Below are positions 20,547-29,537 of a DNA stretch of 51,207 nt, in pieces. Both the position numbers and the translations under genes were made by a program. The notes beneath the pieces were generated by a model. The model saw only the letters and a list, made by a program, of their open reading frames with translations, did not search any database and was not told the origin of the DNA. Source of the DNA: a virus; the IMG/VR virus record IMGVR_UViG_3300026907_000016; one strand, given 5' to 3'. Positions within the stretch are counted from its first letter, which is position 1, and the number at the start of each line of letters is the position of its first letter.

Positions 20547-21278
20547 ATGTCTGAGCAAAACATGCAGATCTGGTCTCAGGTCGATAAGACCGACCCTCAA
20601 TACACCAAAGCAGCAAAGGTCGGCGGCCAAAACATCACCAGCCTGAACGGTACGGCAATGGTCATGAAGGCTACCGAGGTATTCGGGCCTGCTGGAATCG
20701 GCTTTGGCTGGAACATCATTGAGGAGCGCTTCGACAAGGGCGCCGAGATGTTTTCCGGCGAAGGCGAAAAACGCATCTCGCTTGGGTTCGAACTGAACCA
20801 CACCGTCAAGATCATGTTCTGGTTCAAGGTCAACGGCGAGCGAGGGGAGATTGAGCAGTACGGGTGCACACCGTATCTCTACAAGTCGAAGTACGGCACC
20901 ACAACTGACGGCGAGGCGCCAAAGAAATCGCTGACCGACGCCATCAAGAAAGCCCTTTCGATGCTCGGCTTCAGCGCTGACGTATTTATGGGCATGTTCG
21001 ATGATCGCGATTACGTCGAACAGCGGCAAGAAGAAGAGGCGCAAGAGCGGGCGCTGGAGAAAGCTGCCGAGGAAGAGCGCCTGAAGAACGAGCGCTTGGA
21101 ATACCTCAAAGGCGTCATCACTGAGATGCAGCAGGCCGAAACATTCCAGGCTCTGAAGAAAGCCCATGACCTGGCCGTGCGGCGCCTAACTGCCCAGCAA
21201 GACCACAACGGTGTCAAGCGCATCGCCAAGGAACTTGCCGAGCAAACGCCTCGATTCAAGCAGGAGGACGCAGCATGA
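20547..21278 (+). CDS. Rad52/Sak-like single-strand annealing protein
   Basis: 243 aa. KKSLTDAIKKALSMLGFSADVFMGMFDD is typical of Rad52-family phage annealases. Acidic coiled C-terminus. Confidence 0.6.
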   Translation: MSEQNMQIWSQVDKTDPQYTKAAKVGGQNITSLNGTAMVMKATEVFGPAGIGFGWNIIEERFDKGAEMFSGEGEKRISLGFELNHTVKIMFWFKVNGERGEIEQYGCTPYLYKSKYGTTTDGEAPKKSLTDAIKKALSMLGFSADVFMGMFDDRDYVEQRQEEEAQERALEKAAEEERLKNERLEYLKGVITEMQQAETFQALKKAHDLAVRRLTAQQDHNGVKRIAKELAEQTPRFKQEDAA

Positions 21279-21838
21279 CTCAGCTCTATGTGCTGACAGG
21301 TCAGATGGCGGAACTTGCCGCCATGGCCGACACCGACGATGAAGGCCTGAAGCAAGCCATCCAAGACACCATGGATGCGATCCAGGGCGAGTTTGAGGTC
21401 AAGGCAGACAGCATCGTGATGTTGCGCCGTAACATTGAGGGCGACATCGAAGCAATTGATACCGAGATCGCCAGGCTTGCCGAACTGAAGCGCATCAAAA
21501 AGAACAGTATTGGCCAGATCAGCGATTACCTGCGCCGCAACATGGAGGCAGCTGGCATTAAGTCGATCAAACGCCCCCTGTTCACCATCACCCTGGCTGC
21601 TGGCGTCGAAAAAGTCATCGTCGACAAAGAGTCGGATGTCCCTGACGACTTGGTTACTGTCAGCACCAGCATTGCCCCGGACAAGAAGGCAATAGCCGCC
21701 AAGCTCAAGGAAATCCGCACCCATAACGAGTCCGTGCGGAAACGCATAGACGCTGGTGAAGACGCAGAGCACGAACTCTTGCCAGAGCCCGCCTGGGCTC
21801 ACCTTGAGCGCGGCGAAGCATCCATTCGCATCAAGTAG
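21275..21838 (+). CDS. Siphovirus Gp157-like protein
   Basis: 187 aa. An N-terminal coiled coil followed by KRPLFTITLAAG...; ATGA overlap with the annealase gene. Confidence 0.55.
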   Translation: MTQLYVLTGQMAELAAMADTDDEGLKQAIQDTMDAIQGEFEVKADSIVMLRRNIEGDIEAIDTEIARLAELKRIKKNSIGQISDYLRRNMEAAGIKSIKRPLFTITLAAGVEKVIVDKESDVPDDLVTVSTSIAPDKKAIAAKLKEIRTHNESVRKRIDAGEDAEHELLPEPAWAHLERGEASIRIK

Positions 21839-21949
21839 CCAACGAACCCCGCCACCACGACACGGGGCGCCACCGGCAACGCTTGGAGCCGCGCCGTAAC
21901 GACAGGCTGGCCACCTGGGCATTCGGCCACTTATTCCGAGGACACCAAC

Positions 21950-22492
21950 ATGCACCACCTGACGACACTGAACCTGCCTACCGTGCAGGGCGCAGCGATC
22001 ACCAGTGCCTGGCTGGACCAGGCTGTGGCCGACTTCGAAGCCAAGGGCGGCGTGATCAAGCACTACGAGATTCGCATCGGCGGCGATATCGGCGGCCAGT
22101 GGAATGGCCCCGGTGCGATTGTCCTTTCTACCGGCCAGAGTGCGAACGATGCGGCTGATGCTGAGCGTATCCGGGCGCTGGCAGACAAGGGAGCCGGCAT
22201 CACCGCGATCAAGTACCACCTGCAGATTGATGCGCGCCGGATCAAGCGGCTGGCTCAGGCCTACGGGATCAAGATCGAAAGCAAGCGCGGAGGCAACCGC
22301 GGCACCGGTCCGAACGAGGCTAATCGCAAGGCAACGACCGAACGAGGCCGCAAGCACCGCCAGGAACTGGCCCGTCAGGCCATGCCAATGATCGCAGCCG
22401 GCGAGTCCATGAACACCATCGTCAAGGCGCTCGGGTGCAGCAAGGCGACCCTGGCGCGAGCAATCGAGGAAAACAGCCATGTCGCCAATTGA
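21950..22492 (+). CDS. Hypothetical protein with C-terminal HTH
   Basis: 180 aa. GESMNTIVKALGCSKATLARAIEE. Confidence 0.5.
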   Translation: MHHLTTLNLPTVQGAAITSAWLDQAVADFEAKGGVIKHYEIRIGGDIGGQWNGPGAIVLSTGQSANDAADAERIRALADKGAGITAIKYHLQIDARRIKRLAQAYGIKIESKRGGNRGTGPNEANRKATTERGRKHRQELARQAMPMIAAGESMNTIVKALGCSKATLARAIEENSHVAN

Positions 22493-22658
22493 GCTCTTCG
22501 AACACCAGCGCCACCTGAGCGCAGCCATGCACGACCTGGAATCGCGCCTCAAGGACATGGACGAAGTGACCAAGGCCAGAGCCTACAAGACCCTCGACAA
22601 CCTCGAGCGCGAGTACGCCCGAGCCGTCGAGATGGCGTCATACGGCGCCTGCCAATGA
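22479..22658 (+). CDS. Small helical ORF (59 aa, below the track cutoff)
   Basis: MSPIELFEHQRHLSAAMHDLESRLKDMDEVTKARAYKTLDNLEREYARAVEMASYGACQ*. Confidence 0.4.
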   Translation: MSPIELFEHQRHLSAAMHDLESRLKDMDEVTKARAYKTLDNLEREYARAVEMASYGACQ

Positions 22659-22731
22659 TCGAGTACTGCCGCACGACCTGGGCGCCCGTCCCGTGCGGGT
22701 GCCTGAGGTGCACACCAATAGCGAGGTGAGA

Positions 22732-23541
22732 ATGAATGAGCTGGCTCTTTTCGCGGGCGCTGGTGGAGGAATACTCGGCGGCCACCTCTTGGGGTGGCGC
22801 ACCGTCTGCGCCGTTGAGCGTGATGCCTACGCAGCACAAGTTCTGGCGCAACGACAAAACGATGGAGCCCTCCCAGCTTTCCCGATTTGGTCTGACGTGT
22901 GCAGTTTTGACGGACGACCATGGCGAGGCCTTGTTGACGTGGTTTCGGGCGGATTCCCGTGTCAGGACATATCCGCTGCCGGGGCTGGTGCCGGGATTGA
23001 TGGCGAGCGGTCTGGCCTCTGGCGTCAGATGGCTCGAATCATCGGTGAGGTACGACCCAGCCACGTCTTCGTGGAAAACTCACCGCTGCTTGTGGGACGA
23101 GGACTTGCCGTGGTCATCGGTGACCTTGCCGAAATGGGGTATGGCGCTCAATGGGCTTGTCTATCGGCATCCGACACTGGAGCGCCCCATCAGCGCGACA
23201 GAATCTGGCTTGTGGCCAACGCCAACGGTTCACGGCAATCACAACATGCCCGGCAGCAGCAAGACGGCGGGATGGGGTCTGAGCAGCGCGGTCAAGATGT
23301 GGCCGACGCCGACAGCGATGAACTCAAGCGGCGGCGCGGCGCTATCCAAGTGGGGAGGATCTGGCGCGCGCAAGAAGCTGAAGACCATGGTTACGCCGGC
23401 CGAGCTGCATGGCCCACTGAACCCGGCATGGGTCGAATGGCTGATGGGGTGGCCAATCGGTTGGACAGACTTAAAGCCCTTGGAAATGGCCAAGTTCCGC
23501 GAGTGGCAGCAACAGCATTCTCCCTTCTCGATCGAGGCTGA
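22732..23541 (+). CDS. dcm: DNA (cytosine-5) methyltransferase (frame A)
   Basis: MNELALFAGAGGG (motif I), GGFPCQDIS (IV), FVENSP (VI), QRDRIWLV (VIII) and LKALGNGQVP (X), in canonical order. SD GAGGTGA. Confidence 0.85.
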   Translation: MNELALFAGAGGGILGGHLLGWRTVCAVERDAYAAQVLAQRQNDGALPAFPIWSDVCSFDGRPWRGLVDVVSGGFPCQDISAAGAGAGIDGERSGLWRQMARIIGEVRPSHVFVENSPLLVGRGLAVVIGDLAEMGYGAQWACLSASDTGAPHQRDRIWLVANANGSRQSQHARQQQDGGMGSEQRGQDVADADSDELKRRRGAIQVGRIWRAQEAEDHGYAGRAAWPTEPGMGRMADGVANRLDRLKALGNGQVPRVAATAFSLLDRG

Positions 23542-23554
23542 TAACGCAGCCTAA
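22736..23554 (+). CDS. Co-extensive +1-frame ORF (frame B, 272 aa) inside dcm. Possible second product or recoded segment.
   Basis: The ATG lies 4 nt after the dcm ATG. Natural-looking sequence with GLWPTPTV, KMWPTPTAM and LNPAWVEWLMGWPIGWTDL. Hand-counted GC3 is about 74%, versus about 56% for frame A. Confidence 0.5.
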   Translation: MSWLFSRALVEEYSAATSWGGAPSAPLSVMPTQHKFWRNDKTMEPSQLSRFGLTCAVLTDDHGEALLTWFRADSRVRTYPLPGLVPGLMASGLASGVRWLESSVRYDPATSSWKTHRCLWDEDLPWSSVTLPKWGMALNGLVYRHPTLERPISATESGLWPTPTVHGNHNMPGSSKTAGWGLSSAVKMWPTPTAMNSSGGAALSKWGGSGARKKLKTMVTPAELHGPLNPAWVEWLMGWPIGWTDLKPLEMAKFREWQQQHSPFSIEADNAA

Positions 23555-28290: not shown

Positions 28291-28509
28291 ATGCCAATGG
28301 AGCACATTGATTTCCTCAGCCACGAGCAGGTGTGCGAGCTTACCGGCGCCAAGATAAAAGCTAGGCAAATCGCCATACTCAAGGCAAACGGCATCCCCCA
28401 CACCATCAAGGCAAGCGGCTGGCCGTGCGTGATCGCGGCCAACCTGATGCCGCACATGAAGCAGAAGATCGAAGCGCCTTCTGAATGGAGGCCTAGGAAG
28501 GCATCGTAA
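28291..28509 (+). CDS. DUF4224-like protein, typically found upstream of integrases
   Basis: 72 aa. LSHEQVCELTGAKIKARQIAILKANGIPHTIKASGWPCV. Confidence 0.55.
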   Translation: MPMEHIDFLSHEQVCELTGAKIKARQIAILKANGIPHTIKASGWPCVIAANLMPHMKQKIEAPSEWRPRKAS

Positions 28510-29537
28510 TGGGACGCAGACCAACCAAGCCAGGATCAGTGCCGCGCCTGCGCGAGCGGAAGCGCGGCAAAACCTCCTACTACTTCTACGACCTTGGCGG
28601 CAGGCCGAGAAAGGAAATCTCGCTCGGGAAGGACTACGGTTTAGCGATCATGAGGTACGCCGAACTGGAGCGGGATAGATCGGCTAGCGACCTGGCGCGG
28701 CAAGTGATCACTTTTGACTACGTGGCCAACCAGTACCTGACTCAGATAGTTCCGACCAAGGCCCCTGGCACTCAGACCAAGAACCGTCAGGAATTGGCCA
28801 GGCTGAAAGAGTTCTTCAACGACCCGCCCGGGCCGCTGGAGGCTATTCAGCCGATCCACGTTCGTCAGTACCTGCGCTGGCGGAAGGACGCACCTGTAAG
28901 TGCCAATCGGGAGAAGGCACTCCTAAGCGCGATCTGGAACTTCGCCCGGGAAAGCGGCTATACCGCGCTGGCCAACCCGTGCTCCGGCGTTAAGGGAAAC
29001 CGGGAGGATGGGCGCGACGTGTACATCGAGGACTCCATGTACGACGCCGTTTACGCGGTAGCAGATATCGGCCTGCAGGATGCAATGGATCTTGCGTACC
29101 TAACAGGACAGCGCCCGGGCGACACGCTGCGCATGGATGAGCGGGATATCAAGGATGGGAACCTGCATGTTAAGCAGGCCAAAACAGGCATGAAGCGAAG
29201 GATTGAAATTGGCGGCTCGCTGGAGGCGCTGATTGAACGCATCAAGGCACGTAAGGCCGGTCACAAGGTGCGCTCAACGCGGCTGATCGTGACAGAGGAA
29301 GGCAAGGCCATGACGGCCAGCATGTTGCGGGGAAGATTCGATAAGGCCAGGGAGGCAGCCAAGATCCCTAAAGCAGACTTCCAGTTCAGAGACCTGCGCG
29401 CCAAGGCAGGCACGGACAAGGCGGAATCGAGCGGGGATATCCTGAAGGCACGGGATCAGCTCGGGCACACAACAGTGGTCATGACCGAGCAGTACATCCG
29501 TGATCGCAAGGGGAAGAAAATCACCCCTACCCGATGA
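28509..29537 (+). CDS. int: Tyrosine integrase
   Basis: 342 aa. LAYLTGQRPGD (Arg I), FRDLRAKAGT, LGHTTVVMTEQYI (HxxR-like box and catalytic Tyr region). Adjacent to attP. Confidence 0.9.
   Translation: MGRRPTKPGSVPRLRERKRGKTSYYFYDLGGRPRKEISLGKDYGLAIMRYAELERDRSASDLARQVITFDYVANQYLTQIVPTKAPGTQTKNRQELARLKEFFNDPPGPLEAIQPIHVRQYLRWRKDAPVSANREKALLSAIWNFARESGYTALANPCSGVKGNREDGRDVYIEDSMYDAVYAVADIGLQDAMDLAYLTGQRPGDTLRMDERDIKDGNLHVKQAKTGMKRRIEIGGSLEALIERIKARKAGHKVRSTRLIVTEEGKAMTASMLRGRFDKAREAAKIPKADFQFRDLRAKAGTDKAESSGDILKARDQLGHTTVVMTEQYIRDRKGKKITPTR

Follow-up and report, generated by a model that had tools for sequence, protein, structure and literature searches.

We analyzed a stretch of viral DNA of 51,207 nucleotides (nt), the IMG/VR virus record IMGVR_UViG_3300026907_000016, referred to below as the window, in which two open reading frames (ORFs) on the plus strand share nearly all of their nucleotides. 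ORF A (22732..23541; 269 codons from its ATG, stop codon at 23539-23541) encodes the catalytic subunit of a C5 cytosine DNA methyltransferase (MTase), its activity being predicted, and ORF B (22736..23554; 272 codons, stop codon at 23552-23554) encodes an overprinted protein in the +1 frame, for which we propose the role of a DNA-recognition (beta-like) subunit. Both ORFs are under selection, and the constraint is divided between them by region. An earlier note on this DNA, made from the sequence alone, had reported two co-extensive ORFs behind one Shine-Dalgarno (SD) sequence, and its coordinates, stop codons and both ATGs proved to be correct.

The ATG codons of A (22732) and B (22736) are 4 nt apart, both within AATGAATGAGC, the stop codons are 13 nt apart, and the overlap amounts to ~810 nt. 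One SD sequence, GAGGTGA (22723..22729, plus strand), would, as read from the sequence, serve as a single site for both starts, and a TGA in frame B stands directly 5' of the ATG of B. An SD-like core was found upstream in 137 of 150 related loci, where its spacing to the ATG of B has a mode of 8 nt. The start of A is 4 nt nearer to the SD than that of B, and about half of the related loci use GTG or TTG as the start codon of A. Both starts are plausible, and the SD spacing appears optimal for the ATG of B. There is also a GTG at 22693, in frame with A and 13 codons upstream of its ATG, which would yield an ORF of 282 amino acids (aa); the ATG at 22732 is the likely start of A because no SD precedes this GTG and because homologues begin at the NTG-AATG context.

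Three stretches can be distinguished along the plus strand. Region 1 (22732..23217; A codons 1-162) contains motifs I-VIII and is dominated by A, B being stop-free in it, with scattered frozen positions. It includes motif I of A, LFAGAGGG (A6-13), with invariant columns; motif IV, GGFPCQDIS (22948..22974), with the catalytic Cys77 and columns invariant in a 14-sequence alignment; motif VI, FVENSP; and motif VIII, QRDRIWLV (23191..23214). The bases of motif VIII also encode part of the sequence ISATESGLW of B, which runs into the first WPTPT box, GLWPTPTV (23207..23230), conserved in B alignments. In region 2 (23218..23406; A codons 163-225), the linker of A is unconstrained but open, and B is constrained in its WPTPT-box region, the presumed target-recognition part; the second box, KMWPTPTAM (23294..23320), has W/P/T/P columns that are 60-90% conserved across 143 loci. 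The most conserved part of B follows, a motif IX-like box, LNPAWVEWLMGWPIGWTDL (23417..23473), which overlaps EPGMGRMADGVANRLDRL of A. Motif X of A, LKALGNGQVP (23470..23499), overlaps the tail LKPLEMAKF of B, and its residues G251, N252, G253, Q254 and V255 are invariant. All five motif strings of frame A and all three strings of frame B quoted in the earlier note are present.

The fraction of G and C in third codon positions (GC3) is 152/269 for A and 202/272 for B, compared to 70.7% in six neighboring genes. These counts agree exactly with those made by hand in the earlier note. The high GC3 of B is not evidence of coding: the third position of B is the first codon position of A, which is presumably G-rich. 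The informative point is the GC3 of A, which is depressed relative to the neighboring genes.

Openness and selection in the two frames

For a survey of openness, 160 loci with relatives of A (50-84% identity, gene GC content 46-65%) were taken from IMG/VR and GTDB genomes, and the 159 of these that carry a full-length A served as the base. B is open from its ATG to within ~35 nt of the stop codon of A in ~155 of the 159 loci, whereas the +2 frame of the same loci contains a mean of 16.7 stops, with a minimum of 9. B starts with ATG in 150 loci and with GTG in 4, and a TGA or TAA in frame precedes this start. This ATG requires the second codon of A to be AAT and not the preferred AAC; thus, it is kept against codon preference, even in GC-rich hosts. 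In one exception, L113, A is interrupted by a stop at codon 41.

Observed openness was compared to a conservative null model, in which synonymous codons were permuted within each gene while one of the two proteins was kept fixed. Across the whole gene, 4.5 stops are expected in B when A is fixed (mean probability of an open frame, P(open), 0.009) and 8.5 stops in A when B is fixed (mean P(open) 0.0003). The corresponding expectations for the gene in the window are 3.4 stops in B (P(open) 0.01) and 7.6 stops in A (P = 0 in 200 permutations). When the analysis is restricted to the stretches in which one frame does not dominate, 2.3 stops are expected in the first 160 codons of B with A fixed (median P(open) 0.045), and 2.3 stops in the linker of A with B fixed (median P(open) 0.08). 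Therefore, both non-dominant stretches are held open by selection. The locus survey and the permutations rule out an open frame that is due to chance or driven by GC content, which was the third possibility raised in the earlier note. A sequencing frameshift or a pseudogene in this window is likewise ruled out, the two-ORF layout being the rule (~155/159 loci).

Nucleotide diversity by codon position, calculated for 143 distinct loci, shows how the constraint is distributed. In A codons 4-162 the diversity is 0.23, 0.14 and 0.45 in the first, second and third positions of A, i.e., periodicity of the A type, and the middle region has periodicity of the B type, with 0.52, 0.53 and 0.67 in the first, second and third positions of B, the third being the most variable. 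All three positions have low diversity in A codons 226-262 (0.30, 0.17 and 0.27). Estimates of the Nei-Gojobori/OLGenie type, obtained from 42-70 independent sequence pairs, follow the same division. In the N-terminal region the dNN/dSN of A is 0.17 and the dNN/dNS of B is 0.56. In the middle region the ratio for A is 1.27 (1.02-1.57) and omega for B is 0.20 (0.12 on matched pairs); for the 21 matched pairs, B-synonymous sites evolve at 0.85 versus 0.085-0.105 for B-nonsynonymous sites. At the C-terminus the ratios are 0.34 for A and 0.30 for B, indicative of purifying selection on both frames. The use of dSS as a neutral reference was abandoned, these sites being too few and saturated.

Synonymous sites of A, a check suggested in the earlier note, give a matching result, in that four-fold sites are frozen under the conserved residues of B. 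In the C-terminal region, five such codons are nearly or fully invariant (CCC 130/132, GTG 124/124, GGG 128/130, GCC 135/135 and GCC 132/135), and they sit exactly under the LNPxWVEWLMGWP box of B. About 10 of the 44 four-fold sites of A in the N-terminal region are frozen as well, e.g., GTT 128/129 and GGG 142/142, the rest being near neutral (0.6-0.73); the frozen ones map to B residues L4, L9, E12, H34, L67, D123 and G135. The linker of A has no column conservation, and depending on the locus it is 31 to 134 codons long. Its omega of ~1.3 and an AlphaFold2 confidence (pLDDT) of ~30 agree with the description of the linker between motifs VIII and X as filler in the earlier note.

A subfamily of six loci (L054, L075, L082, L088, L149 and L154) carries a 5' tandem duplication of ~11 codons. 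B keeps its N-terminus, MSWLISRALMEDYENS (motif MSWLxSxALxExYxNS), in the new copy, the copy of motif I of A is degenerate (VMVNFTGANGG), and the ATG of B lies 5 nt upstream of that of A. Taken together, selection keeps B open throughout; in the first half it also acts on scattered positions, and over the final 110 residues it is strong. Both frames are thus open beyond chance and each is under purifying selection somewhere in the overlap, as in a dual-coding pair, and of the possibilities listed in the earlier note it is the genuinely overprinted protein that is borne out, by openness, conservation of the ATG of B, an omega of B of 0.12-0.20 in the middle region, frozen synonymous sites in A, and the N-terminal motif that B retains over a different A sequence in the duplication subfamily. 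The overlap, dominated by A, then by B, then by both, is a deeply sampled natural model of a long same-strand overlap, which is useful for testing overlap detectors.

The two proteins and their distribution

Searches with the two translations, which the earlier note had proposed, gave a result for A and no Pfam match for B. A matches PF00145 (9e-33) in residues 4-200 only, and phrog_363 'DNA methyltransferase' (6e-66) over its full length; M.HhaI and M.HaeIII in the PDB match only residues 4-165. The motifs GGFPCQDIS, FVENSP and HQRDRIW align to M.HhaI residues 15-173 and show little or no variation. Neither a target-recognition domain (TRD) nor motif IX was found between motifs VIII and X of A, as the earlier note had maintained: the match to PF00145 extends no further than profile position 199 of 324 and the linker is not conserved. 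Motif X of A was left unaligned by the Pfam HMM, both within A and as an isolated peptide; its LGNGQVP is invariant across homologues, and AlphaFold2 predicts C-terminal helices there. The AlphaFold2 model of A, based on an 86-sequence alignment, has a Rossmann-type catalytic domain, followed by residues 168-231 with a pLDDT of ~30 and no secondary structure, and then the C-terminal helices. A Foldseek search with this model returned HaeIII, HhaI and the DNMT1 catalytic domain over only ~175 columns. Therefore, A consists of a catalytic domain, a spacer and motif X. In one locus (L015, 1501-2694; also P0206), A reads past its usual stop and acquires a C-terminal extension of ~130 aa, for a total of 398 aa, and B ends as usual.

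B has no match in Pfam, NCBIfam or PDB searches, including a PDB profile search, and matches PHROGs 1008, 26627 and 35493. Thus, the same DNA feeds two unrelated protein families, one defined by PF00145 and phrog_363, and the other by these three PHROGs and no Pfam entry. The constrained parts of B are the WPTPT boxes over the linker of A and the LNPxWVEWLMGWPxGWT box just 5' of motif X of A. The spacing from the LMGWP box to GNG is fixed at 35 nt in 121 of 122 loci.

The C-terminal half of B matches 13,427 cluster representatives at 50% identity (E <= 1e-3), 3,003 of them at E <= 1e-10. A tblastn search with B found 99 phage records, 48 of which are Paenibacillus larvae phages; the other hosts include Lacticaseibacillus, E. 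coli (P2-like), Vibrio, Stenotrophomonas, Ralstonia, Microcystis and Mycobacterium. The same search against plasmids yielded 7 records, none from E. coli. In phages of Paenibacillus, Lacticaseibacillus, E. coli (P2-like) and Mycobacterium, B can be recognized at 29-45% identity, and its frame is in every case +1 relative to the MTase; this identity and the survey of openness cover the check, proposed in the earlier note, of whether B stays open and conserved at the amino-acid level in homologous loci. All four distant loci that were inspected have a B-like ORF, which occupies the +1 frame of a C5-MTase whose middle is not conserved, and the start of this ORF is internal, near A codon 60. In Gram-positive phages B is nested within A, and WPTPT-type boxes are also found in Gram-positive phage and mycobacteriophage homologues.

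Among 100 diverse B-like representatives, PF00145 is present in frame in only 3; therefore, B-type sequence is not normally part of a single-chain enzyme. The idea that actinobacterial enzymes carry PTPTA boxes, EWMMG and GNG in a single frame found no support in this set, the two cases that were identified being A(1-85)/B fusions. Such in-frame fusions, P0280 and P0282, join A residues 1 to ~85, which hold motifs I and IV, to the part of B that runs from about residue 95 to its end, share the junction GGFPCQDISVAGGV(H/Q)ALTENA, and have neither motif VI nor motif VIII. They could represent a frameshifted lineage or assembly indels.

Annotation of these genes is divided between the two frames. 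The exact frame-B protein is present in the public collection as P0001, a JGI gene call with > 7,390 homologues, and the exact frame-A protein is absent from it, the best match reaching 83% identity; in this GC-rich setting, frame B is evidently the one that gene callers choose. Among 120 listed homologues of B, none has a Pfam domain, and the source names, where given, are 'hypothetical'. Homologues of A are annotated 'DNA cytosine methyltransferase', and the same contigs sometimes bear both calls. In GenBank phage records, A is called in some phages and B in others; the second ORF of Paenibacillus phage Shelly is annotated 'g55 internal gene'. The layout recurs in thousands of phage genomes, but PGAP, Pfam and most phage annotators call one frame only, the choice depending on host GC content. 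Our literature searches found no description of the phage-wide overlap.

A proposed two-subunit methyltransferase and alternative explanations

By analogy with M.EcoHK31I, we consider it rather probable that this is a dual-coding gene, in which A is the catalytic subunit and B the missing recognition subunit of a two-subunit enzyme. Ribosomes directed by the one SD would start either at the ATG of A or at that of B, so that the same ~810 nt would give two full-length proteins. A would comprise motifs I-VIII, a disordered and unconstrained spacer of ~65 aa, and the motif X helices, tethered by this spacer. B would provide the missing small-domain (recognition) subunit, encoded in the +1 frame of the spacer of A, and its binding to A would produce an active, sequence-specific orphan MTase, whose methylation would protect phage DNA from host restriction. 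We infer that both ORFs are translated, that A and B associate, and that B acts in DNA recognition.

M.EcoHK31I, from E. coli HK31, recognizes YGGCCR. As reported by Lee, Kam and Shaw in 1995 and described in later papers, it is a heterodimeric C5-methyltransferase, the beta subunit of which is read from a different frame within the gene for alpha; alpha contains motifs I-VIII and X together with a presumed TRD, beta contains motif IX, and both are required (PMC2836561, PMC3404938). Our comparison is one of described layout and motifs. Like M.EcoHK31I alpha, A has motifs I-VIII as well as X but lacks motif IX; the second chain is likewise read from a different frame on the same strand of the same DNA; and B has, as a possible counterpart of motif IX in beta, a similar box just upstream of motif X. 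Unlike in M.EcoHK31I, where beta, reportedly of 176 aa, lies inside alpha, A and B overlap from start to stop, and the enzyme is predicted to be an orphan prophage enzyme and not one of a restriction-modification pair.

In M.AquI, motifs I-VIII are on the larger subunit and motifs IX-X on the smaller, and the variable region is divided between the two; in common with M.AquI and with artificially split M.HhaI and M.SssI, which work by fragment complementation, the C5-MTase proposed here would be built from chains that are divided within or beside the variable region (PMC3404938). In contrast to M.AquI, in which motif X is on the small subunit, motif X is here on the catalytic chain and the second chain is overprinted. 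The alpha and beta genes of M.AquI are consecutive and overlap only briefly. The locus also resembles B within A and E within D of phiX174 and the lysis genes of RNA phages, in that a complete same-strand overlap in a phage has two products and alternating constraint. It differs from such classical phage overprinting because the partners appear to be parts of one enzyme, because the overlap is ~810 nt long, and because its conservation extends to phages of Proteobacteria, Firmicutes, Actinobacteria and Cyanobacteria. The 'two-subunit methyltransferase' of Stx phages, M.ECPA8_3172P/PNB-2, was considered as a relative and rejected, since it is encoded by adjacent genes, is an rRNA methyltransferase, and is unrelated.

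Several results weigh against the two-subunit reading. When selection was simulated on A only and B was merely kept stop-free, the N-terminal ratio for B was 0.49-0.69; therefore, the observed value of 0.56 for the N-terminal 160 aa is no evidence of amino-acid selection, and we withdrew it as such. Most of the N-terminal half of B may be a passenger, of which only openness is needed. An OLGenie-type dNN/dNS of 0.56 in the +1 frame alone can thus mimic purifying selection where none exists. The AlphaFold2 prediction for B alone is poor (mean pLDDT 52, pTM 0.23, from a shallow 83-sequence alignment). The only pairing found by hhalign between the B profile and M.HhaI, LNPtWVEWLMGWPiGW with residues 273-289 KLHPRECARVMGYPDSY (motif IX), is not significant (E 0.22, probability 0.3%); the description of this box as motif IX-like in the earlier note thus fits in position and pattern and lacks statistical significance. 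In M.EcoHK31I the TRD was assigned to alpha, whereas here the TRD-like constrained sequence is in B and the linker of A is unconstrained. Finally, three loci (L132, L137 and L149) have a stop in the linker of A, with B intact and the C-terminus of A conserved. In L149 (about 2035-2045) the stop is followed at once by an ATG (AAT TAA ATG), and L132 and L137 share a TAA just after A codon 165, with an ATG 6 codons later. Rather than decaying, A may be divided here into two ORFs, the second reached by reinitiation, and these loci may represent a three-piece variant.

B could be a real overprinted protein that has nothing to do with methylation, e.g., an anti-defense factor, a regulator or another DNA-binding protein. 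We regard this as unlikely, though as the most serious of the alternatives. It would account for the absence of significant similarity between B and any part of a methyltransferase, for the absence of a small-domain-like fold in the AlphaFold2 prediction of B, and for the fact that B spans the whole gene, beyond the TRD/motif IX interval, and has its own conserved N-terminal motif, MSWLxSxALxExY. It would leave A alone without a constrained recognition domain, so that something else must supply one. Moreover, the strongest constraint on B falls exactly where the canonical TRD and motif IX lie, directly 5' of motif X, none of the loci examined had B in the absence of the MTase frame, and the precedent of M.EcoHK31I counts against an unrelated function. 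At the other extreme, B might be untranslated, and its openness and conservation might be by-products of conservation of A, of GC-rich composition or of constraint at the nucleic-acid level. The second codon position of B is its most variable one in the N-terminal 160 codons, the N-terminal dNN/dNS agrees with the null described above, and the high GC3 of B could stem from presumed G-rich first positions of A. Nevertheless, such by-products are extremely improbable as an explanation: B stays open in hosts with a GC content as low as 46%, for which the expectation is 5-8 stops; the middle region has B-frame periodicity and an omega of 0.12-0.20 where A is unconstrained; the ATG of B is conserved against codon preference; and B retains its 29-45% identity across phages of hosts from different phyla, where the middle of A has no column conservation.

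Programmed frameshifting, the second possibility of the earlier note, would build a single-chain enzyme with a TRD and motif IX by a +1 shift from A to B after motif VIII and then a -1 shift from B to A before motif X, or by a single shift from A to B, the full-length ORFs being incidental. The order of regional constraint (A, then B, then A and B), the A_AAG tetramer (TTAAAG) that is common where the -1 shift would be needed, the retention of the C-terminus of A in the three loci with linker stops, and the natural fusions of the A N-terminus to the B C-terminus, P0280 and P0282, all speak for this explanation. However, no X_XXY_YYZ heptamer occurs in the 35-nt interval from the LMGWP box to GNG (0/122 loci), TTAAAG is replaced by TTAAGG in some loci, and the chimera A1-162 + B162-245 + A247-269 scores 108 bits against PF00145, compared to 114 for A alone, its IX-X junction peptide being unrecognized by that profile. 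Frameshifting needs neither an ATG-initiated B that is open through the first 160 codons nor an open linker in A, both of which are selected; an ATG comes 0 or 6 codons after the linker stops, suggesting reinitiation; and the natural fusions are without motifs VI and VIII. We consider a frameshifted enzyme improbable as the main product, whereas a frameshift product may still occur as a minor species.

In our reading of A and B as two subunits, the locus is of the known but obscure M.EcoHK31I type, here in an extreme, co-extensive form within a very large unrecognized family. Monomeric phage C5-MTases, as annotated through PGAP, PF00145 and phrog_363, correspond to frame A, which is treated as complete while B is omitted. 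More tentatively, it is possible that a large unannotated superfamily of phage C5-MTases (> 13,000 clusters at 50% identity) consists of obligate two-subunit enzymes, with the recognition subunit overprinted from start to stop in the +1 frame and its boxes placed in the disordered spacer of A. If this is true, M.EcoHK31I would be the only characterized example, the overlap would rank with the longest and most broadly conserved same-strand gene overlaps known in prokaryotic viruses, and the specificity of these enzymes would be set by a protein that current annotation omits. Thousands of annotated 'DNA cytosine methyltransferases' may be incomplete enzymes. If B carries recognition, both frames would be needed for prediction of specificity, for engineering and for heterologous use; the assignment of the TRD to alpha would fail for this family, and M.EcoHK31I would be worth re-checking if it is homologous. 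Orphan MTases help phages to evade restriction, and a two-in-one gene with a swappable middle would be an economical means of diversifying specificity.

Genomic context

The neighborhood of the gene on the plus strand includes, within 20547-21835, an exonuclease (phrog_7838, 6e-98) and an end-protection protein similar to Gam of Mu (phrog_253, 2e-44). A tyrosine integrase (phrog_1, 7e-48) lies downstream of the gene, at 28509-29534. As judged from these matches, it is a prophage early/recombination module. No match to a restriction enzyme was found among the 10 neighboring ORFs that were scanned; therefore, the MTase is predicted to be, probably, an orphan, anti-restriction enzyme. The minus strand carries an ORF of 520 aa with a TTG start (21011-22573), antisense to the exonuclease, the Gam-like protein and the genes that follow, which may be open by chance in this region of 58-62% GC.

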